Source: a virus (taxonomy: Duplodnaviria > Caudoviricetes). From it: a stretch of DNA of 33,091 bases. Under the pieces are notes generated by a model. It worked only from the letters and a program-made list of their open reading frames with translations, did no database searches and was not told where the DNA came from. Shown here one piece after another: positions 4,176-20,189 of this stretch. Made by a program: the position numbers and the translations under genes. The stretch is taken from positions 1 through 33,091 of IMG/VR virus record IMGVR_UViG_3300037424_003016; one strand, 5' to 3'. How positions within the stretch are numbered: position 1 is the first letter of the stretch; each line of letters starts with the position of its first letter.

Positions 4176-4541
4176 ATGTTCGATTCAAATAAACTAAACA
4201 GAAGAGATAAACACATATTGAAAGCATTACTGTATTTCTATCCTAAAAAAAGAAGTGCAGCACAAATTTATGATTATGTATCAGGCTTTAATCAAAAGAC
4301 TGGACTAAAAAATGCCAAAGCATTAGGACATATCTTAATGATATTTCCAGTAAAAAGCGAACTTACAGTTTACAGAACTTATACTGATAAACGAATTACA
4401 GGAAGCAGATTTATTCGAATATATGTTCTTGAAGAATCCTTTGTAAAAAAATATTATAAAGAAAAAAATGGAATAATAAAACTGGGGAAACAGAACTCTG
4501 CAAAGTTGAATAAAAATGTCAGAAGCCGAAACAAAGAATAA
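4176..4541 (+). CDS. Basic hypothetical protein, possibly winged-helix
   Basis: GGAGGT RBS; K/R-rich helical N-terminus followed by a beta-hairpin-like C-terminus. Confidence 0.55.
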   Translation: MFDSNKLNRRDKHILKALLYFYPKKRSAAQIYDYVSGFNQKTGLKNAKALGHILMIFPVKSELTVYRTYTDKRITGSRFIRIYVLEESFVKKYYKEKNGIIKLGKQNSAKLNKNVRSRNKE

Positions 4542-6564
4542 ATCACTGATGGTCTTATCAGAAGTGAATGAAGGTGTTAGACAGACTTCAGTTACAGTGG
4601 ACTACTCTACTGTAAATTATTCTAAGCTTGAAACTATTTACAAGACAGAACAACTTATTTTTCAAGCAGTAAACATTATCAGTACATTTGCAGTTTCTAA
4701 AGGATACGATTATGTTGTCTCAGATAATTCTGAAGAAGAAATTGATATGAAAGAGATCATTCTTTCATTTGACAATAAAGTAGGATTACCTAAAATGATC
4801 ACAGACATTGTTCGTCATCTTCACATTTATGGAAATGCATATCTTGAAATTATTTATTCAAAGACAGATAACAAAAAGGTTGTTGGACTTGCACTTATTG
4901 ATCCCAAAACAATTACTTTCAAGAAAAAAGGAACAGGAGAGATTGATCTTGATGAATCAGGAAATATCAAAGGATATGTTCAAACTGTAAATGCCAAAAA
5001 GATTGATTTAGAACCTGAACAAGTAATTCATTTTAGAATAAATACAATTGCAGACTCATTAACAGGAACAGGAATAATTGAACCTCTTGTCAAGATTATT
5101 GAAGCTAAAAGAAATATTGAAGCAGGATTATCTGAAGCAATTTATAGACATGGCTTCCCACAATTTCATGTAAAGTTAGGAGATACAGAACATCAACCAA
5201 CAGGAGAACAAGTAACAGAAGAAAGTGAGAAATATAAACGTATTAATTCAAAATCTGAATTTGTAACTCCATATTATTATGATATAAAAGTTTTAGAATC
5301 GCCATCAATTAAAGGTGGAGAAAGTTACTTAAAATATTTCATAGACCAAATAGTAGCAGGAACAGGTGTTCCTCAAACAATACTCTTAGGAACAGGAGAG
5401 AACAGTAACAGAGCATCATCTTTTACTCAACAGCAAAATTTCTTTTTGTATATTTCTGCAGTTCAAACTTTAATTTCTGAAATATTATCAAAAGATTTAT
5501 TCACAAAAATATTGACAGTTGATGAATGTCCAGTATATATGAACTTTAATTCACTTGAAACAAAATCAGATCTTGAATTAGCACAAGAACGTGAAATCTA
5601 TCTTCGAAACGGTGTTTTAACTCCTGATGAAGTCAGGCAAGAGATGGGCTTAGAACCTATTTCTCAATCCCCCTATCTTCCTCAACCCATCACTGATGAT
5701 TCAGGAGCTTTTATTTTTTCAACCAATTTAGACGATCCTGAATTAAGAATTGAAGCTGAAGAAGATTTTGTATTTAATGCAAATGAAAATATGGAATTTG
5801 GTGGAATACTTCAAAATCTTTCAGAACCAATCAAATCAAGATTTATTCAAGACCAACAAATCTTATCTCATAAAATTGACAAGATTATGGATAAGTACAG
5901 AAATAAAATAGATAAAGAAATTGATTTAAATCTTACTTCAGATGATCAAGAACTTGCTGGAGAAAACATCTTTATTGATTCAGAATTACTTGCTCCTGAA
6001 AGAGATGCATTAATAGCTGCAATATTCTTAGATTCAAAGAAAAAATTCAAACAAGGAATTGCATTAGGAGAAGATTTCATCAAAAAACAATATCCCCAAG
6101 TTGCAGGAATAAAAGTCAAAAGCACAGTAAATGAAGGAGCTATCAAAGCTCTTGATCTTAGAGCCACTCAATTAGCAAAAACAGTTCATGGCGACTTACT
6201 TACTGCAACACAAATAGCAATAAGAGAAGGACTACAAGCTCGTAAAGGAGCAAGACAATTAAAAGAAGATATTGAGAAAGTCTTTGAAAAATATGGCGGG
6301 ACTTCTGGAAGATTCCAAAAGTTAGGAACAAGAGCAGAATTAATAGCAAGAACAGAATTACACCGTTCATTTATTGATGGCACATTACAAAGCTTCAAAG
6401 AACTTAAAGTTTCAAAAGTTGCTATGGTTGTAAATACAGGGGCTTGTGAGGAATGCATAGAATTATCTGCAGACCATCAAGAGATTCCATTACATTTATC
6501 TCAAGGAATAATCCCAATCCACCCAAGATGCAGATGTGGATGGGTTGCTTCTCAAGTGGATTAA
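4516..6564 (+). CDS. Portal protein fused to C-terminal MuF/SPP1 gp7-like head morphogenesis domain
   Basis: Portal motifs IYGNAYLEI, VIHFR, GVP..+LG, GVLTPDEVRQEMGLEP; MuF motifs RAELIARTE, ACEEC, HPRCRC. Confidence 0.9.
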   Translation: MSEAETKNKSLMVLSEVNEGVRQTSVTVDYSTVNYSKLETIYKTEQLIFQAVNIISTFAVSKGYDYVVSDNSEEEIDMKEIILSFDNKVGLPKMITDIVRHLHIYGNAYLEIIYSKTDNKKVVGLALIDPKTITFKKKGTGEIDLDESGNIKGYVQTVNAKKIDLEPEQVIHFRINTIADSLTGTGIIEPLVKIIEAKRNIEAGLSEAIYRHGFPQFHVKLGDTEHQPTGEQVTEESEKYKRINSKSEFVTPYYYDIKVLESPSIKGGESYLKYFIDQIVAGTGVPQTILLGTGENSNRASSFTQQQNFFLYISAVQTLISEILSKDLFTKILTVDECPVYMNFNSLETKSDLELAQEREIYLRNGVLTPDEVRQEMGLEPISQSPYLPQPITDDSGAFIFSTNLDDPELRIEAEEDFVFNANENMEFGGILQNLSEPIKSRFIQDQQILSHKIDKIMDKYRNKIDKEIDLNLTSDDQELAGENIFIDSELLAPERDALIAAIFLDSKKKFKQGIALGEDFIKKQYPQVAGIKVKSTVNEGAIKALDLRATQLAKTVHGDLLTATQIAIREGLQARKGARQLKEDIEKVFEKYGGTSGRFQKLGTRAELIARTELHRSFIDGTLQSFKELKVSKVAMVVNTGACEECIELSADHQEIPLHLSQGIIPIHPRCRCGWVASQVD

Positions 6565-6572
6565 AAATAAAA
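6561..6572 (-). terminator. U-rich archaeal-type terminator for the TR RNA
   Basis: Minus strand reads TTTTATTTTTAA immediately after the closing stem of the predicted RNA. Confidence 0.5.
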
Positions 6573-6574
6573 GG

Positions 6575-6828
6575 TGTCTCAGCTCACTTAGCCTGACTAT
6601 TCCGACAAACCGGCCATTATTGTTTAGATTATTGTTGCCGTTGAGACCGTTATAATTATTATTAAGGAACAGGACACGGCCCCAAGAGTAGCCATTTCAC
6701 TTTCTGAAAAGCCACCACCACTTCACACATTAGGTGTCGTGGTTGTATTTTATAACAGCTAGGCTGTCATAGTGAAACGACGTGTAGTTCCAAGCTACTT
6801 CATTGCTTTTAATAAAGCAGCTGAGACA
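6575..6828 (-). ncRNA. Predicted ~254-nt DGR template RNA
   Basis: No ORF in the track; contains TR; ends form a perfect 10-bp inverted repeat (TGTCTCAGCT 6575-6584 / AGCTGAGACA 6819-6828); several internal stems; TATA box upstream and U-tract downstream. Confidence 0.7.
6597..6682 (-). repeat. DGR template repeat (TR), 86 bp including IMH* (CGGAATAG)
   Basis: In target frame reads GRVLFL-NNNYNGLNGNNNLNNN-GRFVG with 11 AAY codons; aligns without gaps to 6916-7001 and 9818-9903. Confidence 0.97.
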
Positions 6829-6848
6829 AGGTAGATAAGAATATATCT

Positions 6849-6867
6849 TATATAAAAACGTTTTTAT
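6849..6867 (-). promoter_or_regulatory. TATA box (TTTATATA, 6856-6849) for the TR RNA, overlapped by a perfect 16-bp palindrome ATAAAAACGTTTTTAT (6852-6867)
   Basis: TATA lies ~21-28 nt upstream of the predicted RNA 5' end at ~6828, close to canonical archaeal spacing. Confidence 0.6.
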
Positions 6868-6903
6868 TTTCAGATTCTTTAGATGATTATTTTCGCGCGC
6901 TTG

Positions 6904-6916
6904 GCGCCTCCGGCGC
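6904..6916 (-). other. DGR target-recognition hairpin GCGCC-GGA-GGCGC 3' of VR1/IMH
   Basis: 5-bp GC stem with GGA loop directly after IMH; absent from the TR; identical copy after VR2. Confidence 0.8.
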
Positions 6917-7001
6917 TACCCCGACAAACCGGCCACCATAGTTCAGACTATAGTCGCCGTAGAGACCGTCCTAATCATCACCAAGGAACAGGACACGGCC
7001 C
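6916..7001 (-). repeat. DGR variable repeat VR1 with IMH (CGGGGTAG)
   Basis: 16 mismatches to TR by manual alignment; 15 are at TR adenines (2 of them in IMH) and one is the T>G creating TAG. Confidence 0.96.
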
Positions 7002-7785
7002 TGAGGAGTAACAGCATCACGACCACTAAAAGGATGATAACAACCTAAAGTATCATCAGAAGTGTCTTTTGCTCTTTCAAAGTATTCTTCTAAATTTTGC
7101 ATTCCTGCGTTTCTTGCCATCACTAATGGATTTGCTAAAAACTTCCCTTTTTTAACATAAGTAGATTCAGTATTCTGAGCTACTGAATAAGGCATTACAA
7201 TTCCAAACTGATGAGGCAAATCAGAAACTCCTTTCTTAATTTCATCATCAAAATGATATAACTTAATTCCAGATCCATCATGAAGTTTACCATCCAGTAA
7301 ATCATCAAACTCCTGATTTGTATATTTAGCACTACCGTTCATTAATCCTTCATCATAAGCTTGTTTAATACGTTTAGGAGTTAGTATTCCCCCTCCATTA
7401 ACTAAAACAAGAACAGGCTCATTAGCGGCATAGAATCTACCTTTTTGATCAATACCAATGTTTTCTTCAGTGTGAACAGTAAGCCAATTTTGATAAAAAT
7501 CATGATCATTTCCAGCTTTAACTTTAGCTGCAATAAGTTCAGGCATTGTAGCAACATAACCAGTACTTCCAGCATGTTCTAAAGCTTGTTGCAAAGCATC
7601 AGCAAGATTGCCATCATAAAACATCTTGCCTTTTAGTATATCATCAATATTAACGATACTTTGAGAAGTAACAGGTTGAGTTCTATTTGGATTATTAACA
7701 GGTTGTCTTACAGGTATTTCTTGTCCAGGAATCCAACCAGTAGCTTGAATGAATTTCTCCAAATCTTTATCAGGAATTATTCGAG

Positions 7786-9774
7786 TCATTTTGAAAGTAA
7801 CACCTCCAGTCCAGCTTGAAGCATTTTATCCTTATCGTGAACAGGATGATAAACAATATTAGGATCATTTCTTACTGCATTTCCTAGATCATAAGTTCCA
7901 CCAATTTCAAAAAGTACAACATGATTATTAGGATTACTTGCTATTTCTTTCATTTTCTTAGCTTCTCTTTGTGTTCGACCATCAATAACTAAACTACCGT
8001 CAGTTACAACAACATATGTTCTTTGCTGTCCATCACGATAATTTGTGATATTGATATCTTCTTCATCATAACCATTATTAGGCTTAAACAAAGCACTTAA
8101 AGGTCCTGTTTCTCCTTTCCAAAATTGATCAACAGTTACAATATCTGAACTTACTTGAGAATTACCAAAATTATGAATTCTCATTTTTGCTTGTTTACTG
8201 ACTTGTTTTTCTCCTTGATATAAAGCATCAACAAAACCATACATGACATGACTAAGCATATCCCATCTACTTCCGTCATTTACTTTATATCTGCCAGCAG
8301 TACCGCCAAACATACTTCCTGAACTGTCAAGATAAAACTCAACCATATCAGGAACATTCATATGAGCATCAACATAAACAATATCTTTAAGATCTCGCTC
8401 TTTTAATTCATATTCATTAAGTCGATAAGTGCCATTTCCTAAATCCATAAGCCATGGCAAACGAGTTTTCTTTTGTAAAGTACTGATTCTTCCAAGATTT
8501 ACTCTACTTAATTGGTCTTCTGTAAGGACGGTGCTCTTCTTTAGATTCCAATATTCTTGTTTTCCAACTACAACACTCTCGCCAAATTTTTTACCTCCAA
8601 GAATTTGAACCTTAGGATGATTTCGTTTGTAAAATTCATGTGTAGCTAAAACATCAAGATTTTTCATCTCATCAGCACTAGAATCTTTACTGCCAGGTTT
8701 TTTACTATCAACTTCATGGAGAAGTTGCATCTGAGATGCAGCCTGTTGTAAATCACCATCACTTTCTTGAGCTAAACCTTGAACGAATTGCTGTTGTTCA
8801 ACAGGTGTCATATCATCTAATAAATCTTGTAAAATATTTTGAGGTGAAGCACCGCTACCAGCACCTTGCATATCAGGTCTTCCTTGAGGCATTCCTTTCT
8901 GAACATAAGGACCTAATACAGCCATAAAACGTTCAATACCCTTATATCTATCATCTCCAGAAAAAACATCTCTAACAGCACTAACATAAGCTTGAACACG
9001 CTCATAAGTCTCTTGATTAGAATCACTTCCAAATAAAGATTTAGCTCTATCGACTAACGAAGCTCCTTTCGATTTAGGTAAATCAACAGATTGACCGATT
9101 AAACTGCCTAAAGCTTTCTCAGCAACAGCAACTCCTTCTTTGCCAGATTTACCTTCAAAGAAGCCATGGGTGCTTGCAGGACCGTACATAACTCCATACA
9201 AGAATCTTGTAACAGTATAAAAATTAGTTTCAGAAGGAGAATTTTGTAATTCTAACAAGTCCCAAGTAGGAATAATATCATCTCTAACATACTCTCCTTC
9301 TTTATTATCTAATGCAAAACGGTTATCTAAAATAAAATCTTTAACTCCATTTTGAGATGCTTGAACCTTAACTACTTGTTCAAGTGGACTAAGATTTGGT
9401 TCAGCTTTTACAACTCCACGCCTAATAGCTTGATGAATTAATTTATTATCATTGTTTTCTCCTTCCACACTAAACGGAGCTTCAATAGGATGATAAAGTT
9501 CATGATGTAATAAATAATGTAAAGTTTCTTTTGCTAATTCTTCAGGAGTCCCATCCCAATACTTAGCAACAACATCTTCAAACTTTTGAGCTAAATTATT
9601 ATCTTGAGAAATTTCTGCATAAATTCTTTTAAGATCAGTTGAAAATGTCCAGTCACGACCATTTTGTGCAACTCTTCGAATAACAGGGGTATCACTACGT
9701 AAAGGAAAGTCTCTCCTGACGTCATCACGCCAGTCACGTTCAGCTTCATTAAGAAGCAATTGCATATCTTTCAT
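7786..9774 (-). CDS. vWA-domain protein with N-terminal HExxH putative metallopeptidase domain (MoxR partner, DUF2201-like architecture)
   Basis: HHELYH motif in the N-terminal part; MIDAS DSSGS, later VVVTDG; Q/G-rich linker between the domains; ATGA overlap with target 1. Confidence 0.8.
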   Translation of the reverse strand: MKDMQLLLNEAERDWRDDVRRDFPLRSDTPVIRRVAQNGRDWTFSTDLKRIYAEISQDNNLAQKFEDVVAKYWDGTPEELAKETLHYLLHHELYHPIEAPFSVEGENNDNKLIHQAIRRGVVKAEPNLSPLEQVVKVQASQNGVKDFILDNRFALDNKEGEYVRDDIIPTWDLLELQNSPSETNFYTVTRFLYGVMYGPASTHGFFEGKSGKEGVAVAEKALGSLIGQSVDLPKSKGASLVDRAKSLFGSDSNQETYERVQAYVSAVRDVFSGDDRYKGIERFMAVLGPYVQKGMPQGRPDMQGAGSGASPQNILQDLLDDMTPVEQQQFVQGLAQESDGDLQQAASQMQLLHEVDSKKPGSKDSSADEMKNLDVLATHEFYKRNHPKVQILGGKKFGESVVVGKQEYWNLKKSTVLTEDQLSRVNLGRISTLQKKTRLPWLMDLGNGTYRLNEYELKERDLKDIVYVDAHMNVPDMVEFYLDSSGSMFGGTAGRYKVNDGSRWDMLSHVMYGFVDALYQGEKQVSKQAKMRIHNFGNSQVSSDIVTVDQFWKGETGPLSALFKPNNGYDEEDINITNYRDGQQRTYVVVTDGSLVIDGRTQREAKKMKEIASNPNNHVVLFEIGGTYDLGNAVRNDPNIVYHPVHDKDKMLQAGLEVLLSK

Positions 9775-9788
9775 TGTTTGAACCTTCT

Positions 9789-10712
9789 CTATTTTCGCGC
9801 GCTTGGCGCCTCCGGCGCTACCCCGACAAACCGGCCACCATTGTTTAGATAACCGTAGCCGCCGAGACCGTCATAACCACCATTAAGGAACAGGACACGG
9901 CCCTGAGGAGTACCAGCATCACGACCACTAAAAGGATGATAACAACCTAAGTCTCCATCAGATGCTTTTGCCATTTCATAGTATGGTTCTAAATTCTCAA
10001 TGCCTCCTGCTCGAGCAATTACTAAAGGATTTTCCATAAAATCTTTCTTTTGATGGTAACCTGACTTTGTTCCTTGAGCCATAGAATAAGGCATTACAAC
10101 ACCAAATCTATGAGGCAAATCAGAAACACCTTTCTTAATTTCATCATCAAAATGATATAATTTAATTGCAGATCCATCAGGAAGCTTACCATCTAGCAAA
10201 TCATCAAATTCTTGAGGTTCATATTTAGCACTATTACTAATTAATCCCTCATCATAAGCTTTCATAATTCTATCAGGAGTTAATATGCCTCCGCCATTAA
10301 CAACCACTAAAACAGGTTCATTTGTAGAATAAAATCTGCCTTTTGTATCAATACCTATATTTTCTTCAGTATGAACTGCATACCATTTTTGCCAAAAATC
10401 ATGACTTTTATCTGCTTTTAATTTAGTAGCAATAAGCTCAGGGATTGTAGCTACATAACCATTAGCTCCAACATAATCTAAAGCTTCTTGAAGAGCAACT
10501 GCTAAACCAATATAATAACCATCTTTCTTTTTTTCACTAAAAAAAGTCTTTCCCTTCAAAATATCATCAATATTAACGATACTTTGAGAAGTAATGGGCT
10601 GTGTTCTATTTGGATTATTAATAGGTTGTCTTACAGGTATTTCTTGTCCAGGAATCCAACCCGTAGCTTGAATGAATTTCTCCAAATCTTTATCAGGAAT
10701 TATTCGAGTCAT
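9789..10712 (-). CDS. DGR target protein 2 (C-type-lectin-like variable protein), intact
   Basis: C-terminal VR; YVATIPEL helix and terminal GRFVGV strand typical of DGR CLec-fold targets; paralog of 6887-7789. Confidence 0.9.
   Translation of the reverse strand: MTRIIPDKDLEKFIQATGWIPGQEIPVRQPINNPNRTQPITSQSIVNIDDILKGKTFFSEKKKDGYYIGLAVALQEALDYVGANGYVATIPELIATKLKADKSHDFWQKWYAVHTEENIGIDTKGRFYSTNEPVLVVVNGGGILTPDRIMKAYDEGLISNSAKYEPQEFDDLLDGKLPDGSAIKLYHFDDEIKKGVSDLPHRFGVVMPYSMAQGTKSGYHQKKDFMENPLVIARAGGIENLEPYYEMAKASDGDLGCYHPFSGRDAGTPQGRVLFLNGGYDGLGGYGYLNNGGRFVGVAPEAPSARK
9806..9818 (-). other. DGR target-recognition hairpin GCGCC-GGA-GGCGC 3' of VR2/IMH
   Basis: Identical to the hairpin at 6904-6916. 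Confidence 0.8.
9818..9903 (-). repeat. DGR variable repeat VR2 with IMH (CGGGGTAG)
   Basis: 15 mismatches to TR by manual alignment, all at TR adenines (2 in IMH). Confidence 0.97.
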
Positions 10713-10717
10713 TTTAT

Positions 10718-12307
10718 CTACCTCACAATAGAACCTAACCTGTGCTCATAGATACTGCTTTGTCCTTTTTTAGCTTGATAGATTTCTCCAAAAGCTTTTA
10801 TTGCGTCAGGTCCTTTTTCTTTTAGAGCAGAAGAAATATCTCCCTCATATGACCTACTAAAATGATCAAGCACTACAAGGTCAGCTAACACTCTTGATCT
10901 CATTGTTGCTTGAGCTGCACTTGTTGCTTGAGTATTAAGTTGAGACATATTATGTTGTAAAAAATTAAGATATTCCTTAAATCCATGTTCTTGACCAACT
11001 TTAATAGCCCCTTGCCATGCAGCTTGTCTTAATCCATATCCTTCAGGGATTCCAGCACCCTTATGCATATCGGCATAAGCTGATCTAGCATCATTTACAA
11101 GAGCCATTAAACTACCATAATCAGTACCTGTAATTGTTTTACTTTCTAAAATAACTCCAATTCCTGCAGTAACATCATTTAAACCAACAGATGCATCATA
11201 CGAACCATCTTTTACTCCTTTAATAAATCCAAGAAGTCGTGACAAATCTCTGATTTTTCTAAGATCACGTCTAACAAATCCATGCTTTAATTTACCTTGC
11301 GCATCAAGAATCTTTCTATAATTATTATCATCTCTAACTGAAAAATTTGGAGTAACACCTGCTTGTTGTAGTAATTCGATATTTCTTTCAAATGTTTGTT
11401 TAGGATCATAACCTACATAGCCAAGAGCTACATCAATAAATTCTCTTGTTTGACCGTCAAGTTGAGATGGGAATTGCTCAGGATCTGTTATAATTGGATA
11501 AACTTCTTTCCAATTACCTTTTACACCTGAACGTTTAGCAAATTCATTCCAAAACTGTTCATGTAAATCTCCTGCTAATGTTTTTTCTAACTGACTTGAT
11601 CCAGCTTCTGCAACTCCATTAGGAAATTTGAATTTTAAGAATCTGTTTTCTCCTGCGATATCAAGGTCAAGTGTTGCACTATGTTCTGCATCCGCAGGGT
11701 TCATAGCAGCTAAGATGGCAAGTCCTTTGTAACTGCCATCTTTTCCAGGAATAGGAAGACGTAAATATCCAGTATCTCCATTGACGTGTACTACGCCATC
11801 AACTACTTGAAATACTTCTTGACTATCTCCTCTGTTAATTTCATCAATAAATAATGCTCCGTATTTAGAACATTTTTCTTGGTCAATCCTTGTTTTTGGT
11901 ACTCCATTCTCTAAAGTGGTTTTAGTAAAAGGTTCAAGAGCGGAACTACCTAAAACTCCTCCGCTAAGTCTAAGAGTGTAATGACCATCAGGACCGAATA
12001 CTGCACTAAATAAGGCATCACTTGTGTACGTTTTTCCAACACCTGTTACACCTTCATAAAGCACGTGAAAATCATCAAAAAACATGGACGCAGTATCAAT
12101 ATCAAGTACTGTTACCTCGGTTGAATTTGGAGAAGGTAATCTTCCTTTTCCATTTAAGAATTTTACGTCAACATTATCTCCTTCTGTGATCTCCATATAA
12201 GGTGTAGGGGATACAACGCCATCAAGTGTGTCATACAAAGTTTGAACGAAATGTTTTCTCATTTCCTTATAATCTTTTTTTTCAGTTGCCATTTTGTACT
12301 TCTCCAT
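10718..12307 (-). CDS. MoxR-like AAA+ ATPase; probable start ATG 12292
   Basis: Walker A GVTGVGKT, Walker B LFIDEINR, sensor-1 AAMNP, arginine finger AGENRF. Confidence 0.88.
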   Translation of the reverse strand: MEKYKMATEKKDYKEMRKHFVQTLYDTLDGVVSPTPYMEITEGDNVDVKFLNGKGRLPSPNSTEVTVLDIDTASMFFDDFHVLYEGVTGVGKTYTSDALFSAVFGPDGHYTLRLSGGVLGSSALEPFTKTTLENGVPKTRIDQEKCSKYGALFIDEINRGDSQEVFQVVDGVVHVNGDTGYLRLPIPGKDGSYKGLAILAAMNPADAEHSATLDLDIAGENRFLKFKFPNGVAEAGSSQLEKTLAGDLHEQFWNEFAKRSGVKGNWKEVYPIITDPEQFPSQLDGQTREFIDVALGYVGYDPKQTFERNIELLQQAGVTPNFSVRDDNNYRKILDAQGKLKHGFVRRDLRKIRDLSRLLGFIKGVKDGSYDASVGLNDVTAGIGVILESKTITGTDYGSLMALVNDARSAYADMHKGAGIPEGYGLRQAAWQGAIKVGQEHGFKEYLNFLQHNMSQLNTQATSAAQATMRSRVLADLVVLDHFSRSYEGDISSALKEKGPDAIKAFGEIYQAKKGQSSIYEHRLGSIVR

Positions 12308-12434
12308 CTAGAATTTTTATTTTAATTTCAACAAGCATTTTAGGTCTAAGTTTATCTCTTAGGAAGGCTGGAATAATAATTATATTCTGAGCTCCTTGCT
12401 TGCTGATTTGTTTTGTTAGTGTAAATTCATTCAT
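12282..12434 (-). CDS. AbrB/SpoVT-like small DNA-binding protein (50 aa from ATG 12434)
   Basis: KQISKQGAQNIIIIPAFLRDKL...VEIKI swapped-hairpin pattern; GGTGA RBS upstream; overlaps the AAA+ start. Confidence 0.65.
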   Translation of the reverse strand: MNEFTLTKQISKQGAQNIIIIPAFLRDKLRPKMLVEIKIKILDGEVQNGN

Positions 12435-12489
12435 TATACGTTCACCATATAAATCACATAACATTTGTATGTTATCACTGTGAGGTAGA

Positions 12490-12534
12490 CACTACTACTA
12501 TTTAAATCTTTCTACTATTAGTCATTTAGTAGTG
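12490..12534 (-). promoter_or_regulatory. Candidate operon promoter: TATA-like TTTAAATA (12506-12499) flanked by inverted repeat CACTACTA / TAGTAGTG
   Basis: Seen in the intergenic region upstream of the AbrB-AAA-target-vWA-target operon. Confidence 0.4.
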
Positions 12535-12608
12535 GTTATAGTTTAATCGATTACTCCACCATTTATAAAGAAATAGCTAATTCTTTAAAAAGTTCTCCAA
12601 TATAAACA

Positions 12609-12803
12609 TTACTCAGTTATGGGAAATTTTTCAATAATTATGAACTCTTTATCACCTGATCTGACTGCACTAACTTGAACTTTGCTACCGCTCTTTAAAC
12701 CAATAGCTTTAGCTTCACGAGTGACCAAAACCCCAATTCCATTCCCGTAAGTATTCAACTGTTTTACAGATCTTTCGATGATTTCTTTTTTTGAATCAGT
12801 CAT
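12609..12803 (-). CDS. Second AbrB/SpoVT-like protein (64 aa from ATG 12803)
   Basis: KQLNTYGNGIGVLVTREAKAIGLKSGSKVQV...IIIEK matches the AbrB-fold pattern. Confidence 0.7.
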   Translation of the reverse strand: MTDSKKEIIERSVKQLNTYGNGIGVLVTREAKAIGLKSGSKVQVSAVRSGDKEFIIIEKFPITE

Positions 12804-12810
12804 ATATTGT

Positions 12811-12906
12811 ATAATACTGTATATAACTAATAAACACAGTATTATACTGTATATTACATATCCTTTGAACAAAGTTAATAAATAAATGTAAGATACTGTA
12901 TATTAC
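12811..12906. promoter_or_regulatory. Operator-like repeat array in the divergent promoter region between the AbrB-like gene and RT
   Basis: ATACTGTATAT at 12814, 12844 and 12893 (last two extend to ATACTGTATATTAC); inverted copy gives palindrome ACAGTAT-T-ATACTGT at 12836-12850. Confidence 0.6.
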
Positions 12907-12907
12907 T

Positions 12908-14584
12908 ATGGATGATAAAAAAGGCATTCTTGTAGAAATATATGATGAAGTTTGTTCATATGAAAATTTAGAGCTAGCATTTCAAAGAGCCAGAAGGGGA
13001 AAAACACTAAAGCAGTATGTGATTGATTTTGAAAAAGATTTAAAGGAAAATTTATTACAATTAAGATCAGAACTTCTTTTACATACATACGAACCAAGAC
13101 CATTAAAAACATTCATTCTACGAGATCCAAAAACAAGAAAAATTAGTAAATCCGCATTTAGAGACAGAGTCATTCATCATGCAATATATAACGTTATAGA
13201 ACCTGTTTTTGATAAGCGATTTGTTCATGATTCGTTTGCTAATAGAATTGGTAAAGGAACTCTTAATGCGATAAAACGATTTGATGTTTTCAAGAGAAAA
13301 GTATCTAAGAATAATACTATAAAATGTTATGTTCTTAAAGCAGATATTAAAAGTTATTTTGATACAGTTGATCATGAGATTTTAATAAAACTTCTATGTA
13401 AAAGAATTCATGATGGGAGATTAATGTGGCTAATTAGAATTATATTAAATAATCATCAAGGAAAAGTATCGAGTAAGGGGATGCCTTTAGGAAATCTAAC
13501 ATCTCAATTCTTTGCTAACTTGTATCTTAATGAGCTTGATCAATATGTTAAACAAAAACTCCGAGCAAAATATTATATAAGATATGTAGATGATTTTGTA
13601 ATCCTACATCAATCTAGAATTCAATTAGAAGAGTATAAGGAAAAGATAGACCAGTTTCTCAAAGAAAAATTAGAATTAAAATTACATCCATTTAAATCTC
13701 AAATTATAAAATTAGAAAAGGGAATTCCTTTCTTAGGAATTAGAGTCTTTTATCATCACAAACTTCTCGTTAAAAAGAATATGAGAAAATTTGAGAAAAA
13801 AATGGAAGTTATGAAAAAAGACTATCAATTGGAGAAAATAGAACGTGAAAAGGTAATGGAAAAATATGAGGGATGGATTGCCTACGCATCACATGCCAAT
13901 ACATACAAATATAGAAAACGAATGACTAGCAAATTAAATCATTCTTTCCCTGCTCAACCTGAAGTAAAAATTACTGCAGTAAAAAAACATGAGAATTTTC
14001 ATAAAAAAGTTGATCTGAGTAAAATTGATTTTACTCAACAAAAAACTTTACAATTAATTAATAGAGGAGTATCCATTGAAAACATCGCTAAACAAAGAAA
14101 CTTAAAGATTGGAACTGTGTGGGATCATATTGCGAATTTAGTAGAACAACATCAAGTACCTCTGAAAAAAATACTTTCTCCAAAGAAAGTCCATAAAATT
14201 TTATATGCAATAGAATCTCCAGAAGATAAACTCAAAGATATCAAACAAAGAATAAATGATGAATCAATAAGTTATAATGAAATTCAAGTTGTGTTGGCAA
14301 ACGTAAAAGCTAAACATAAGAAGAAAAGTATATCCTATTACGCTGAATGGTATCAACGAACAAATTGTTTTAGAAAATGCTATTACAATAAAGATCAAAG
14401 AAAGGAATGCAGAGTTAAATTTCAGCAATTAGTAGCAAAAGGATTGAATATGGATTTCTCAAAACATGATTTTCTGGATTTTTTCCATAATCACGTAAAT
14501 ATCTGTGTTCTACCTGAGAAAGATAAAAAAAGATTTATGTCTTGGGAAGAATTTAAGAAATCAATTAAAAGAAAGAAAAAATAA
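12908..14584 (+). CDS. DGR reverse transcriptase with C-terminal HTH (RecQ/YpbB HTH_40-like) and Cys-rich extension
   Basis: FRDRVIHHA, KADIKSYFDTVDH, GMPLGNLTSQ (DGR-type GxxxSQ), YIRYVDDF; extension TLQLINRGVSIENIAKQRNLKIGTVWDHI. Confidence 0.96.
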   Translation: MDDKKGILVEIYDEVCSYENLELAFQRARRGKTLKQYVIDFEKDLKENLLQLRSELLLHTYEPRPLKTFILRDPKTRKISKSAFRDRVIHHAIYNVIEPVFDKRFVHDSFANRIGKGTLNAIKRFDVFKRKVSKNNTIKCYVLKADIKSYFDTVDHEILIKLLCKRIHDGRLMWLIRIILNNHQGKVSSKGMPLGNLTSQFFANLYLNELDQYVKQKLRAKYYIRYVDDFVILHQSRIQLEEYKEKIDQFLKEKLELKLHPFKSQIIKLEKGIPFLGIRVFYHHKLLVKKNMRKFEKKMEVMKKDYQLEKIEREKVMEKYEGWIAYASHANTYKYRKRMTSKLNHSFPAQPEVKITAVKKHENFHKKVDLSKIDFTQQKTLQLINRGVSIENIAKQRNLKIGTVWDHIANLVEQHQVPLKKILSPKKVHKILYAIESPEDKLKDIKQRINDESISYNEIQVVLANVKAKHKKKSISYYAEWYQRTNCFRKCYYNKDQRKECRVKFQQLVAKGLNMDFSKHDFLDFFHNHVNICVLPEKDKKRFMSWEEFKKSIKRKKK

Positions 14585-14616
14585 GTTAATCTTAACCTTC
14601 TAATTCTTCTTTTCTA

Positions 14617-14650
14617 CTAAAATAATATTAAGAAAAAAACAGATTTCTAT
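14617..14650 (+). promoter_or_regulatory. 34-bp perfect repeat, copy 1; putative late promoter
   Basis: CTAAAATAATATTAAGAAAAAAACAGATTTCTAT ends 4 nt before ATG 14655; identical at 20156-20189. Confidence 0.7.
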
Positions 14651-16434: not shown

Positions 16435-17241
16435 ATGAAAACTATGCAAGAATTATTTTCAACACAAGATGTTGCACCTCTGATCAAAGAAGTGATTGAC
16501 TCCAATATATTCAAAGTCGCTGAAAGAGAAAGAGTAGGTAGACGAATTTTAAGAGTCATTACTTTGAGTGAAGGTTCAGCTCTAAAGATCCCGCGGATGG
16601 GGAAAGGTCAGGCTTATGTTGTTCCTGAACTCGGAGCAATACCTCAAGATGCTAGTAACTTTGATGATGTTGTAATTACACCTTACAAGATTGCCAAAGC
16701 ATTTACTATCTCAAAAGAAGCGATTGAGGATTCAGCTTTTGATGTTGTAAGACTTAAAGCTGACATTGCAGCTGAAGATGTAGCAAGAAAAGAAGATGAT
16801 GAAATTTTCAGACTCTTATCTCAGACTTCAAATTCAGTTAGTCCAAAGACTGCTGGAGAGTTTGTCCAGGAAGATGTGATAACATTAAGGAATGCTGTTA
16901 ATAAGAATAACTACAAGGCTAAATGGCTTGTAGCACACCCTGATGATATGGCTAAGTTGGAAAAAGACTTAATCAGTAAGGGTTACAAAGCTTTTGACAG
17001 GCTTGATGAAAATGGTATCATGGGTAACGTGGCAGGTCTTCAGCTATTGGAAACTACAGCTGTCGAATCTGGGACTATCCTTGCCTTAGATAGCAGAGCA
17101 GTCGTGCTGGTTGAAAGACGACCTCTAAGTACTGAGAACTTTAGCGATCCTTTACGGGACCTTGCAGCTGGAGTAACAATTACTGAGAGAGTTGCACCTG
17201 CAGTACTTGACGATTTAGCAGTCGCAAAGATGACCTTGTAG
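16435..17241 (+). CDS. Major capsid protein, HK97 fold (compact, 268 aa)
   Basis: VPELGAIP, PYKIAKAFTISKEAIEDS, LVAHPDD patterns; strong AGGAGGT RBS; position. Confidence 0.85.
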   Translation: MKTMQELFSTQDVAPLIKEVIDSNIFKVAERERVGRRILRVITLSEGSALKIPRMGKGQAYVVPELGAIPQDASNFDDVVITPYKIAKAFTISKEAIEDSAFDVVRLKADIAAEDVARKEDDEIFRLLSQTSNSVSPKTAGEFVQEDVITLRNAVNKNNYKAKWLVAHPDDMAKLEKDLISKGYKAFDRLDENGIMGNVAGLQLLETTAVESGTILALDSRAVVLVERRPLSTENFSDPLRDLAAGVTITERVAPAVLDDLAVAKMTL

Positions 17242-17289
17242 GTCATCAACTGCAGGTTCTGCTATCTTTAATTTAGCAGGTGATAGACT

Positions 17290-18027
17290 ATGGACTTAAT
17301 TACTGTAAAGAATGAAATAATTGTAGAATCAAACAAGTACAGATTAGGTCCTAGAGTGTTAAAACTTCAAAAGCTAAATGAAGGCTCAGCTACTAAAATA
17401 ACCAAGATAAGAAATGTTAATGGAGCAATAGTTCCTGAGTTAGGTTCTGCTCCTATTTCTCTTTTGGATATGGATTCTTTTTTTGTTTTTCCTTTAACAT
17501 TAAAAATGACAATTCTATTTCCTAACGAAGTCTTTGAGGATAATGATCTTGCTCAAATATTTCAGAAATCTCTTTTAGAGACTTATCATTTTGCATCTAT
17601 TGAGAATAAGTTAGTAGTTGAAGTTTTGATAGCAGGAGCAGGAAAGACTATTATTTCTGAGAGTAAGCCAAATGTTCGAGAGATTCCTATTCTTGATAAT
17701 TTTATTTCAGCAATAAGGTTTATTGAAGATAATAATTATCATCCTAATGTGATTTTGATTAATCCGTCAATTGCTGAAACATTAAGGCAAAGAGATGAAT
17801 TAAAAGAAAAGCTTGTTACTTATGCAATAGAAGTAATCATTGATAATTCTATACCTAAAGGGATGGTTATCATTCTTGATTCAAATCATGCAGGGTTGCT
17901 TGTTGAAAGAAAATCTCCTGAAGTTTCTGATTATGTAGATCATTGGAATCAACAAACAGGATTCTTAGTAAGATCAAGAATTGCTCCGATAGTTACTGAT
18001 GGAAATGCTGTGGTGGTGATCTCATAA
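17290..18027 (+). CDS. Second, divergent HK97-fold capsid protein paralog
   Basis: Colinear similarity to the MCP: LNEGSATKI/LSEGSALKI, VPELGSAP/VPELGAIP, NNYHPNVILINP/NNYKAKWLVAHP, LVERK/LVERR, RIAPIV/RVAPAV. Confidence 0.75.
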   Translation: MDLITVKNEIIVESNKYRLGPRVLKLQKLNEGSATKITKIRNVNGAIVPELGSAPISLLDMDSFFVFPLTLKMTILFPNEVFEDNDLAQIFQKSLLETYHFASIENKLVVEVLIAGAGKTIISESKPNVREIPILDNFISAIRFIEDNNYHPNVILINPSIAETLRQRDELKEKLVTYAIEVIIDNSIPKGMVIILDSNHAGLLVERKSPEVSDYVDHWNQQTGFLVRSRIAPIVTDGNAVVVIS

Positions 18028-19792: not shown

Positions 19793-20164
19793 ATGGAAAT
19801 CGGAGCAGAAGACTTCAATAAAATTGTAGACGTTGATATTGGCATTGATGTTTATTTAAGAAGAAAGACACAAACCATTGATCAAGATTATGGTAGTTTA
19901 ATCTCTGATTCTTATGAAGATTATAGTATAAAAGTTATTTGGGAAGAAGTTACAGGGGAAGAAGAAAACTTCAGACCTGAAGGAGAATTCAAAATAGGCG
20001 ATATAAAATGTTATGCTAAAGGTTTTTACAATGTTAATTTAATGCCTGTTCCAAAGTCAGATACTATAATAAAAGATTCGGTTGAATATAAGATTGTCAA
20101 GTCTACTGTCAAAAGAATTGGTAAGACAATAATCTATCGGCTTCTTCAATTACGGCTAAAATAA
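19793..20164 (+). CDS. Head closure protein (SPP1 gp16-like)
   Basis: Beta-rich 123-aa protein with D.I....EYKI pattern; position. Confidence 0.6.
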   Translation: MEIGAEDFNKIVDVDIGIDVYLRRKTQTIDQDYGSLISDSYEDYSIKVIWEEVTGEEENFRPEGEFKIGDIKCYAKGFYNVNLMPVPKSDTIIKDSVEYKIVKSTVKRIGKTIIYRLLQLRLK

Positions 20165-20189
20165 TATTAAGAAAAAAACAGATTTCTAT
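20156..20189 (+). promoter_or_regulatory. 34-bp perfect repeat, copy 2; putative late promoter
   Basis: Identical to 14617-14650; ends 3 nt before ATG 20193. Confidence 0.7.

Follow-up and report, generated by a model that had tools for sequence, protein, structure and literature searches.

A mobile cassette of tagged, diversified receptors, a MoxR-type ATPase and a HExxH-vWA protein: a candidate intracellular defence machine of DPANN archaea, sometimes carried by temperate viruses

Two kinds of described system are among the closest to the locus treated here, a cassette that lies in a complete virus record of 33,091 bases (Caudoviricetes; IMGVR_UViG_3300037424_003016, called the window in the following) and combines a diversity-generating retroelement (DGR) with two hypervariable target proteins, a MoxR-type AAA+ ATPase and a protein in which a HExxH domain precedes a von Willebrand factor A (vWA) domain. 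The first kind comprises the DUSEL4/DPANN DGRs with variable proteins of the AvpA type, which, in the parts of their descriptions used here (Paul 2015, PMC4372165; Handa 2016, PMC5006420), resemble the present element in an AvpA-like target, an AAY-rich short variable repeat (VR), a terminal RFxGV strand, initiation-of-mutagenic-homing sequences (IMH and IMH*) of the GGGGT/GGAAT type, and an in-gene hairpin with a GRA loop. The second kind is represented by the VMAP ternary conflict systems of cyanobacteria and gammaproteobacteria, in which, according to the pertinent passages of Kaur 2020 (PMC7159879) and Dore 2024 (PMC10907252), each locus likewise holds a MoxR ATPase, a vWA protein, a peptidase and a DGR-diversified lectin sensor, with short adaptor domains joining the parts; there the vWA protein mostly carries the lectin domain as a fused part, and the peptidase, a trypsin or caspase, is borne by a VMAP. 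As for archaea, Roux 2021, in the sections concerned, describes clade 5 targets without a recognisable domain and leaves their location open, and the corresponding part of Dore 2024 reports no conflict domains beside DPANN DGRs. What is found on this subject in Roux 2021, Wu 2018 and a 2024 survey, as far as their relevant portions go, are ATPase-fused targets of the candidate phyla radiation or unexplained archaeal targets, not the arrangement described below.

We read the cassette as a mobile three-part machine of the intracellular defence type, whose exchangeable receptors dock by a shared N-terminal tag, and put the probability of this reading as a whole at roughly 0.6. New here are the predicted docking site of the tag on the ATPase and the tagged receptors that are not lectins; no description of a tagged system of this kind was found in the literature searched, supplements being outside its scope.

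The N-terminal tag and its predicted docking site

The comparison draws on 126 homologues of the ATPase and 119 of the HExxH-vWA protein, those with names being nearly all from Nanoarchaeota or Woesearchaeota (a profile search gave 105 representatives at 50% clustering), and on 81 fetched loci, 32 from genomes and 49 from metagenomes, which are numbered L001 onwards; both core genes are present in 36 distinct loci. The receptors of these loci have in common a tag of about 20 residues, M-x2-I-I-P-x2-L-I-x-H-L-x-W, followed by a proline-rich linker. A tagged gene comes next after 41 of the 46 distinct ATPase genes with at least 300 nucleotides (nt) downstream, three of the five exceptions having the vWA gene next and two having weak-scoring tags, and next after 38 of the 44 distinct vWA genes. 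The co-occurrence of targets, ATPase and HExxH-vWA protein, which an earlier reading of the window from its sequence only had singled out as a check, is thereby found across many genomes. The tag occurs on 135 of 872 open reading frames (ORFs), all of them within 3.5 kb of the core genes; in five whole genomes, all 11 strong matches were cassette genes, with one weak match elsewhere.

The tag is also portable. Tagged target bodies fall into six sequence clusters, with one to five tagged genes per locus; leucine-rich-repeat (LRR) proteins (L075, L080/L081), two propeller-like kinds and helical-repeat proteins likewise begin with the tag or with a variant form. At the loci where non-lectin bodies carry it (L024, L075, L079, L080, L081) no template repeat (TR) was found, and one propeller-like protein had no sequence match in the PDB below E 0.15. 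A further observation concerns L004, where another DGR (positions 246-2480) has two targets without the tag. Their bodies are akin to those of the tagged targets on the same island, so that the tag can evidently be gained or lost.

The choice of partner came from a variation in tag length. The tag is four residues longer in the window, L001, L003, L033 and L040, loci that form one group in the ATPase tree, L040 falling outside that group in the vWA tree. Two otherwise conserved ATPase residues are altered in the long-tag group only (A437 to V or I, T449 to F), and the vWA protein showed little change. Because positions 437 and 449 had changed along with the longer tag, the ATPase was folded together with residues 1-36 of target 2, with three controls and our own alignments. 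The complex model scored 0.76 and the best control 0.00; of 157 solved complexes 116 attain the mark applied, as do 2 of 215 mismatched pairs, counts that are only roughly valid with own alignments. The runs agree in at least 87% of contacts, the partner has a predicted local distance difference test value (pLDDT) of at least 69, and the modelled interface comprises ATPase residues 418-456, 499-507 and 527-529. Residues 437 and 449, flagged before the fold was computed, contact tag residues 14, 17 and 19 in the model. The tag thus probably docks, as modelled, on the C-terminal helical domain of the ATPase (residues 418-529), and the evidence points to the ATPase rather than the vWA adaptor as docking partner. 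Of the joint complex of ATPase, vWA protein and target that had been proposed for modelling, the part covered, ATPase with the tag of target 2, gave the predicted contact.

ATPase, putative peptidase, targets and diversifier

The gene order deduced earlier holds in full, with its coordinates (Table 1): a minus-strand operon of 60-residue ORF, AAA+ gene, target 2, HExxH-vWA gene and target 1, the successive junctions being an overlap, gaps of 5 and 14 nt and another overlap of 4 nt, and a divergently transcribed reverse transcriptase (RT), all within the slot between the portal gene (3' limit at 6564) and the prohead protease gene (from 14655). No family match was obtained for the targets, the AAA+ protein or the vWA protein in Pfam, PHROG, NCBIfam or PADLOC, and their names rest on motifs and predicted folds.

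The assignment of the ATPase to MoxR is supported by its motifs and by a predicted structure (pLDDT 91) closest to MoxR members. Over residues 5-426 it matches 2R44, which we take to be a MoxR member (Z 17.9, root-mean-square deviation 4.2, 311 residues aligned), RavA (Z 16.3) and MCM (12.7), with NorQ and CbbQ2 also among the fold matches; a sequence-profile search of PDB sequences gave weak McrB-type matches only. Between 107 and 111 of the 111 homologues retain the Walker, sensor and arginine-finger residues (K92, N203 and R222 in 111/111, E156 and R347 in 110/111 each), and all of them have the T/S of Walker A. The C-terminal domain lies outside the region of the fold matches and had no atlas match above 0.79.

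In the 662-residue HExxH-vWA protein (pLDDT 87), the earlier identification stands for the vWA part by fold and for the HExxH motif by conservation, and the family of the N-terminal domain found no match in Pfam. The vWA domain, matched at Z 13.8-14.6, runs to the last residue; Rea1 and its MIDAS (metal-ion-dependent adhesion site) domain and NorD align from residue 369-374 through 662, a beta-hairpin insert included, and a vWA profile search of PDB sequences gave chance matches only. The MIDAS residues are well kept (D483 and S485 in 111/114, S487 in 110/114, D592 in 113/114). H91, E92, H95, D146 and D150 are invariant in 114 of 114 homologues, and the atlas leads for the HExxH domain are CobT (0.90, 15% of members) and DUF2201_N (0.85, 79% of members). 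As the HExxH motif and two aspartates are invariant and the CobT and DUF2201_N scores are at lead level, we infer a peptidase activity that is best called putative.

These folds bear on the possibility that the cassette is a non-destructive cellular chaperone or remodelling system in the manner of NorQD, CbbQO and RavA-ViaA, in which the receptors would choose clients or small ligands and have no part in conflict. The closest characterised folds are indeed chaperone-type MoxR proteins, and housekeeping genes often flank the cassette; hypermutation, changing receptor copy number and the swapping of lectin, LRR and propeller bodies are, however, ill-suited to fixed clients, and the distribution is patchy and mobile, which leaves this explanation improbable.

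By sequence both targets are relatives of AvpA with a putative C-type-lectin fold. Target 2 is matched to AvpA (5IOO) at a phmmer E of 9e-7 from residue 63 on, and the targets show the motifs of the AvpA subclass (VVV.., HP/NP..P..G, RFxGV). The divergent bodies of L004 (one) and L036 (two) gave no meaningful PDB sequence match, and their lectin fold is assumed from the position of the VR. As had been noticed from the letters, the two targets of the window show no evident signal peptide or transmembrane helix: a hydrophobic segment above 1.6 on the Kyte-Doolittle scale was found in 0 of 125 tagged proteins, and no signal or membrane segment in the cassette proteins save the doubtful N-terminus of an 87-residue ORF. 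Target 1 of the window is interrupted by a TAG codon at 6971-6973, inside VR1, which arises from the sole non-adenine mismatch and leaves 272 instead of about 299 residues, with the loss of most of the VR and of the last lectin strand. The gene is uninterrupted in L001, and run X3 agrees with the TR at the TAG base (two indels re-read). An alternative genetic code for this TAG was considered and rejected, since TAG terminates the intact capsid, AAA and target 2 genes, among others.

The DGR itself is confirmed, with one TR, two VRs and an RT. The adenine bias of the mismatches (Table 1) is far beyond chance, because adenines make up just 27 of the 86 TR bases. The TR offers 13 variable codons, or about 1.7e14 protein variants, and no stop can be reached through adenine changes. 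VR1 is followed by a hairpin with a 3-base GGA loop at 6904-6916, within the target 1 gene, and VR2 by one at 9806-9818; the IMH and IMH* sequences and the post-VR hairpin match features given in the relevant parts of Paul 2015, as do the motif types. The RT, matched by RVT_1 (E 2e-27) and phrog_1423 (E 8e-115), carries a C-terminal HTH_40 extension, and the RT-16 structured RNA is likely part of the template RNA. Family-library scans found no match to the accessory family Avd among the 34 ORFs of the window, the small ones being left without an assignment. No third VR was found in the 33-kb window, tail fibre gene included, nor in the tail genes of the provirus at L001; the tail genes thus lack the VR that a tropism-switching DGR (BPP-1 Mtd, ANMV-1 AdtA) carries in its tail-fibre or adhesin gene, and the view that the tail fibre is not what is diversified proved right. 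Nor are the targets parts of the virion.

Variation of the VRs was read from contigs, and hence between populations only. In run X3, VR1 differs from the window at TR-adenine sites, with 2 differences in 648 nt of the same gene, and all 12 differences in 834 nt between L036 and L037 lie within the VR. Diversification of the VRs is thus ongoing between populations. Across 59 loci searched on both strands the TR was found at 24, of which 23 are credible (the match at L069, with 10 non-adenine mismatches, was dropped), and an RT is present in 20 of the 36 distinct loci that hold both core genes; the machine therefore exists with and without a DGR.

Some side observations on the DGR may be added. 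In cassettes with a short RT (350-430 residues; L004, L010, L036, L037, L071) the TR is next to the RT, and its strand is not that of the targets but the other one; in those with a long RT it stays 3' of the last target. The rare non-adenine mismatches between TR and VR (window position 6971 and related pairs) frequently replace a T by G or A immediately 5' of a template adenine, in the contexts CTA, TTA, ATA and GTA, half of the 20 cases coming from a single doubtful pair, and hint at RT errors beside mutated adenines.

Of the small ORFs, that of 60 residues at the head of the operon had been called AbrB, for which no family match was obtained in the window ORF or in 18 homologues.

Table 1. 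Features of the cassette and its right border (positions in the window)
Feature	Position	Strand	Basis
Entire mobile cassette in the portal/prohead-protease slot	6563..14598	.	Match to L001; slot empty in L094, L095
Template repeat (TR), 86 nt	6597..6682	-	TR/VR comparison
Rfam RT-16 structured RNA, immediately 5' of TR	6683..6826	-	84.6 bits, gathering 50
Target 1, AvpA-like, interrupted by TAG in this assembly	6888..7789	-	Sequence and TR/VR comparison
VR1, IMH-like end	6916..7001	-	15/16 mismatches vs TR at adenines
Predicted docking tag of target 1, residues 1-23	7721..7789	-	Tag comparison
Putative HExxH metallopeptidase domain, beta-hairpin insert and vWA/MIDAS domain	7786..9774	-	Motifs, predicted fold
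MIDAS DxSxS	8314-8328	-	Inside HExxH-vWA gene
HExxH motif	9490-9504	-	Inside HExxH-vWA gene
Target 2, 307 residues, AvpA-like, putative C-type-lectin fold, intact	9789..10712	-	phmmer to 5IOO AvpA
VR2	9818..9903	-	15/15 mismatches vs TR at adenines
Predicted docking tag of target 2, residues 1-23	10644..10712	-	Tag comparison, complex model
MoxR-type AAA+ ATPase, 529 residues	10718..12307	-	Conserved motifs, predicted fold
ATPase extra helical domain, residues ~418-529, predicted tag binder	10721-11056	-	Complex model
Small conserved ORF, 60 residues, operon head, AbrB-like by eye	12282..12464	-	Homologues ahead of AAA gene at many loci
Second small ORF, 87 residues	12609..12872	-	Weak AbrB-family TIGR01439, E 0.04-0.08, below cutoff
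DGR reverse transcriptase, 558 residues, C-terminal HTH_40 extension	12908..14584	+	Pfam RVT_1, phrog_1423
34-nt viral element preceding protease gene, right edge of cargo slot	14617..14650	+	Repeat at 20156-20189

Carriers and insertion slots

On its plus strand the virus carries genes for a methylase, ParB, terminase, portal, protease, capsid, neck, tape-measure and tail proteins, the contig ending shortly past the tail fibre gene. The cassette is transcribed against the virion genes, and the GC skew reverses across the minus-strand operon. A provirus different from the virus of the window, at L001, matches it at 94.7% of nucleotides across 6563-14573, and in run X3 a single contig links 6545 with 14598, its short side being merely 23 letters. 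Virion proteins of the window and L001 are 57-80% identical, and because the DNA of the cassette is far closer than that, the cassette has moved recently. Within it the receptor genes (88.7% and 92.4% identical) have diverged more than the AAA (96.4%) and vWA (96.6%) genes. The contigs of L001 and L031 also hold integrases and host genes (MetRS, ribosomal S2 and S8e, PolB, S-layer), and are therefore taken as integrated proviruses.

Beyond this family the cassette is found mainly in cells. Of the 81 loci, just two distinct cases adjoin virion genes of the window's family: L001/L002, a single sequence that was binned twice, and L031. Among the flanking ORFs of 41 loci, 296 of 316 of which were scanned with Pfam, are tRNA synthetases, thermosome, topoisomerase VI, SMC, eRF1 and similar proteins, and no capsid, portal or terminase families; some loci are flanked by islands with pilin, TraG and integrase genes. 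Scans of IMG/VR with the AAA and vWA proteins returned 0 further loci, and four of four related IMG/VR viruses do without the cassette, two having an empty slot (L094, L095) and two other cargo. The cassette is accordingly a cellular mobile module of Woesearchaeota-type archaea, sometimes carried by this temperate virus family, and the framing as a viral system in the sequence-only reading gives way to one of optional viral cargo in a module that mostly sits among housekeeping genes or in conjugative-type islands.

This distribution bears on several explanations. A viral device for anti-defence or host takeover that destroys host defence proteins, an option raised at the outset, would be consistent with the three related viral genomes that carry the cassette in the same slot and with its recent transfer (95% DNA identity against 57-80% for virion proteins); as the cassette is mainly cellular and is optional cargo in the virus family, it is judged quite unlikely. 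Less probable still, to the point of being remote, is that the ATPase-vWA pair is a virion assembly chaperone and the targets head decoration or attachment proteins. The site between portal and prohead protease would suit it, as would the jumbo-phage pairs of MoxR and metallopeptidase-vWA proteins proposed as assembly factors in the part of Iyer 2021 (PMC7824862) that treats them, the AAA-vWA pairs that occur in haloviruses, the assembly role proposed for Acidianus two-tailed virus (ATV), and the phage CobT-like proteins that are the full-length fold neighbours of the HExxH-vWA protein. Against this, the cassette stands on the strand opposite to all virion genes, its slot is empty or filled with unrelated cargo in relatives, L094 and L095 implying assembly without it, and its distribution is mostly cellular.

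The islands raise another question. At L004, L010, L018, L032, L052, L071 and L078 the cassette adjoins genes for pilin, a TraG/VirB4-type ATPase and an integrase, which points to conjugative elements among DPANN archaea. Pilin and TraG-type genes flanking seven loci (cluster c5) would also fit a machine that serves DPANN symbiosis, in which the receptors bind proteins of a partner cell and the ATPase reads the tag as a label for delivery or export, instead of the tag being a standing adaptor; a role of DPANN DGR targets in symbiosis has been proposed in earlier literature, as far as it was drawn on, and Paul 2015 and Roux 2021, in their relevant parts, leave target function open. The cassette proteins, however, lack signal and membrane segments apart from the doubtful one mentioned, and the TraG genes accompany integrases, look like a vehicle and are absent from most loci, so that this explanation is unlikely, though the least so of the alternatives.

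Several observations on carriers and slot stand apart. At L080, L081 and P0239 a distant AAA-vWA pair is accompanied by tagged LRR and propeller-like genes with a ubiquitin-domain gene nearby, and one homologue bears the name Ca. Sigynarchaeum (Asgard); DPANN may not be the limit of the module's range. L002 is the L001 sequence in a bin labelled Cloacimonadota, and the labels of some further loci read Methanosarcinales, Doudnabacteria or Flavobacteriaceae; bin or label errors are the probable cause. The portal/protease slot is a cargo hotspot across relatives (L096 6530-7700, L097 7460-8500, L001 15738-16538 and 6724-7733), holding, in that order, a 352-residue lipoprotein-like gene, a small group named by eye as ArsR-like, DsrE-like and membrane proteins, a C5 methylase-like ORF, and three small ORFs. 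The 34-nt element of Table 1 is AT-rich and identical in its two copies, immediately before the prohead protease and neck genes, which have no ribosome-binding motif of the sort seen in their neighbours; all four IMG/VR relatives keep it in both positions, L001 and L031 keep it ahead of the protease gene, and it is likely a late promoter for leaderless transcripts. Two tandem capsid-fold genes (16435-18027; 268 and 245 residues, about 24% identical) occur in all relatives, and the portal gene (4516-6564) carries a fused MuF-like C-terminal domain.

Proposed mechanism and comparison with known systems

In the reading preferred here, of a tag-docked, receptor-guided defence machine, the diversified lectin-fold proteins would plug through the shared tag into the MoxR-type ATPase, whose hexameric ring might, by analogy with NorQD and Rea1, display up to six receptors at its rim. 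The hairpin insert of the vWA protein may engage the ATPase pore as NorQ engages the finger of NorD in the partial account used, and ATP hydrolysis could, on the same analogies, switch on or feed the HExxH peptidase. The receptors would deliver captured foreign proteins to the HExxH-vWA partner for cutting; alternatively, the HExxH domain might cut a host protein. The role would be intracellular defence against viruses or other mobile elements, and a provirus-borne cassette would protect its lysogen. The peptidase is the only effector candidate, because no other effector gene is conserved in the 81 loci; beyond AAA, vWA, targets and RT there is no third conserved large gene in them.

The defence reading is favoured by the linkage, by the specificity and portability of the tag, the docking model, the kept catalytic residues and the VR variation, by a behaviour of the conflict type (one to five receptors per locus, differing insertion sites, carriage on islands and proviruses, faster divergence of receptor genes), and by the bacterial precedent of DGR-linked MoxR-vWA conflict systems. 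The earlier suggestion of swappable substrate receptors is thus supported in its linkage and, by prediction, in its docking on the ATPase, with proteolysis and biological role still a matter of inference. A number of points weigh against it. The covariation is essentially one evolutionary event in one AAA clade, it draws on the same alignments as the complex model, and the interface columns are conserved at 0.54 as compared with 0.67 for the other columns of residues 400-529. Since the profile for the tag derives from the very genes under study, its sensitivity is circular. A credible TR is found at only 23 of 59 loci, many being cut by contig ends and some without RT, and target 1 is broken in the window. 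The HExxH domain has no solved-structure match, the structure-search lists being filled by the vWA domain, and its CobT and DUF2201 leads score just 0.85-0.90. Lastly, many flanks are housekeeping genes and not defence islands, and PADLOC gave no match.

A bolder form, an ATP-driven, SCF-like adaptive protease ring for intracellular immunity of DPANN archaea that accepts any receptor with the 20-residue tag, be it a lectin, LRR, propeller or helical-repeat protein, offers about 1e14 specificities per lectin receptor and has been captured by temperate viruses to arm lysogens against rival viruses, is tentative and stands at somewhat less than even odds. Whatever its role, the locus gives one large group of DPANN DGR targets a partner and a testable predicted interface, a peptide and a 110-residue domain, both of which can be produced in E. 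coli. If it is true that the machine cuts the proteins its receptors catch, it would amount to a programmable protein-targeting system that brings its own diversifier, relevant to archaeal immunity and, as a tool, to targeted degradation.

The F-box proteins of eukaryotic SCF complexes offer an analogy, since there a short N-terminal module, common to all, joins recognition domains of LRR, propeller or lectin type to a single destructive machine; a relationship in sequence or fold is not claimed, and the cassette has no ubiquitin-like component. NorQD, CbbQO, RavA-ViaA and Rea1/Midasin resemble the cassette, as far as their accounts were used, in the fold of the ATPase and in a vWA domain that has a hairpin insert and can be aligned over residues 369-662; their clients, in contrast, are fixed and they have no variable receptors. 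The same two-component core is seen in jumbo phage group 2.2 of Iyer 2021 (PMC7824862), in CobT/CobS-like and DUF2201-like pairs and in ATV p618/p892, and phage CobT-like vWA proteins align with the HExxH-vWA protein over its full length at low TM score; in the passages concerned, tagged receptors or a DGR are not described for these pairs, and the ATPase here adds the C-terminal helical domain.

By the features compared with the pertinent parts of Paul 2015 and Handa 2016, the DGR belongs to the DUSEL4/AvpA kind. Relative to AvpA, the targets add a 55-residue N-terminal stretch of tag and linker outside the AvpA alignment and have no long C-terminal extension, and their genes share an operon with those of the ATPase and the HExxH-vWA protein, partners that those parts of the two papers do not mention. 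With regard to the VMAP systems, no VMAP third component was found in the 81 loci, and no effector or lectin is fused C-terminally to the vWA domain. In contrast to those systems, as presented in the sections of Kaur 2020 and Dore 2024 used here, the cassette has free, tagged receptors and a HExxH domain fused to vWA, does without VMAP, and belongs to DPANN hosts.

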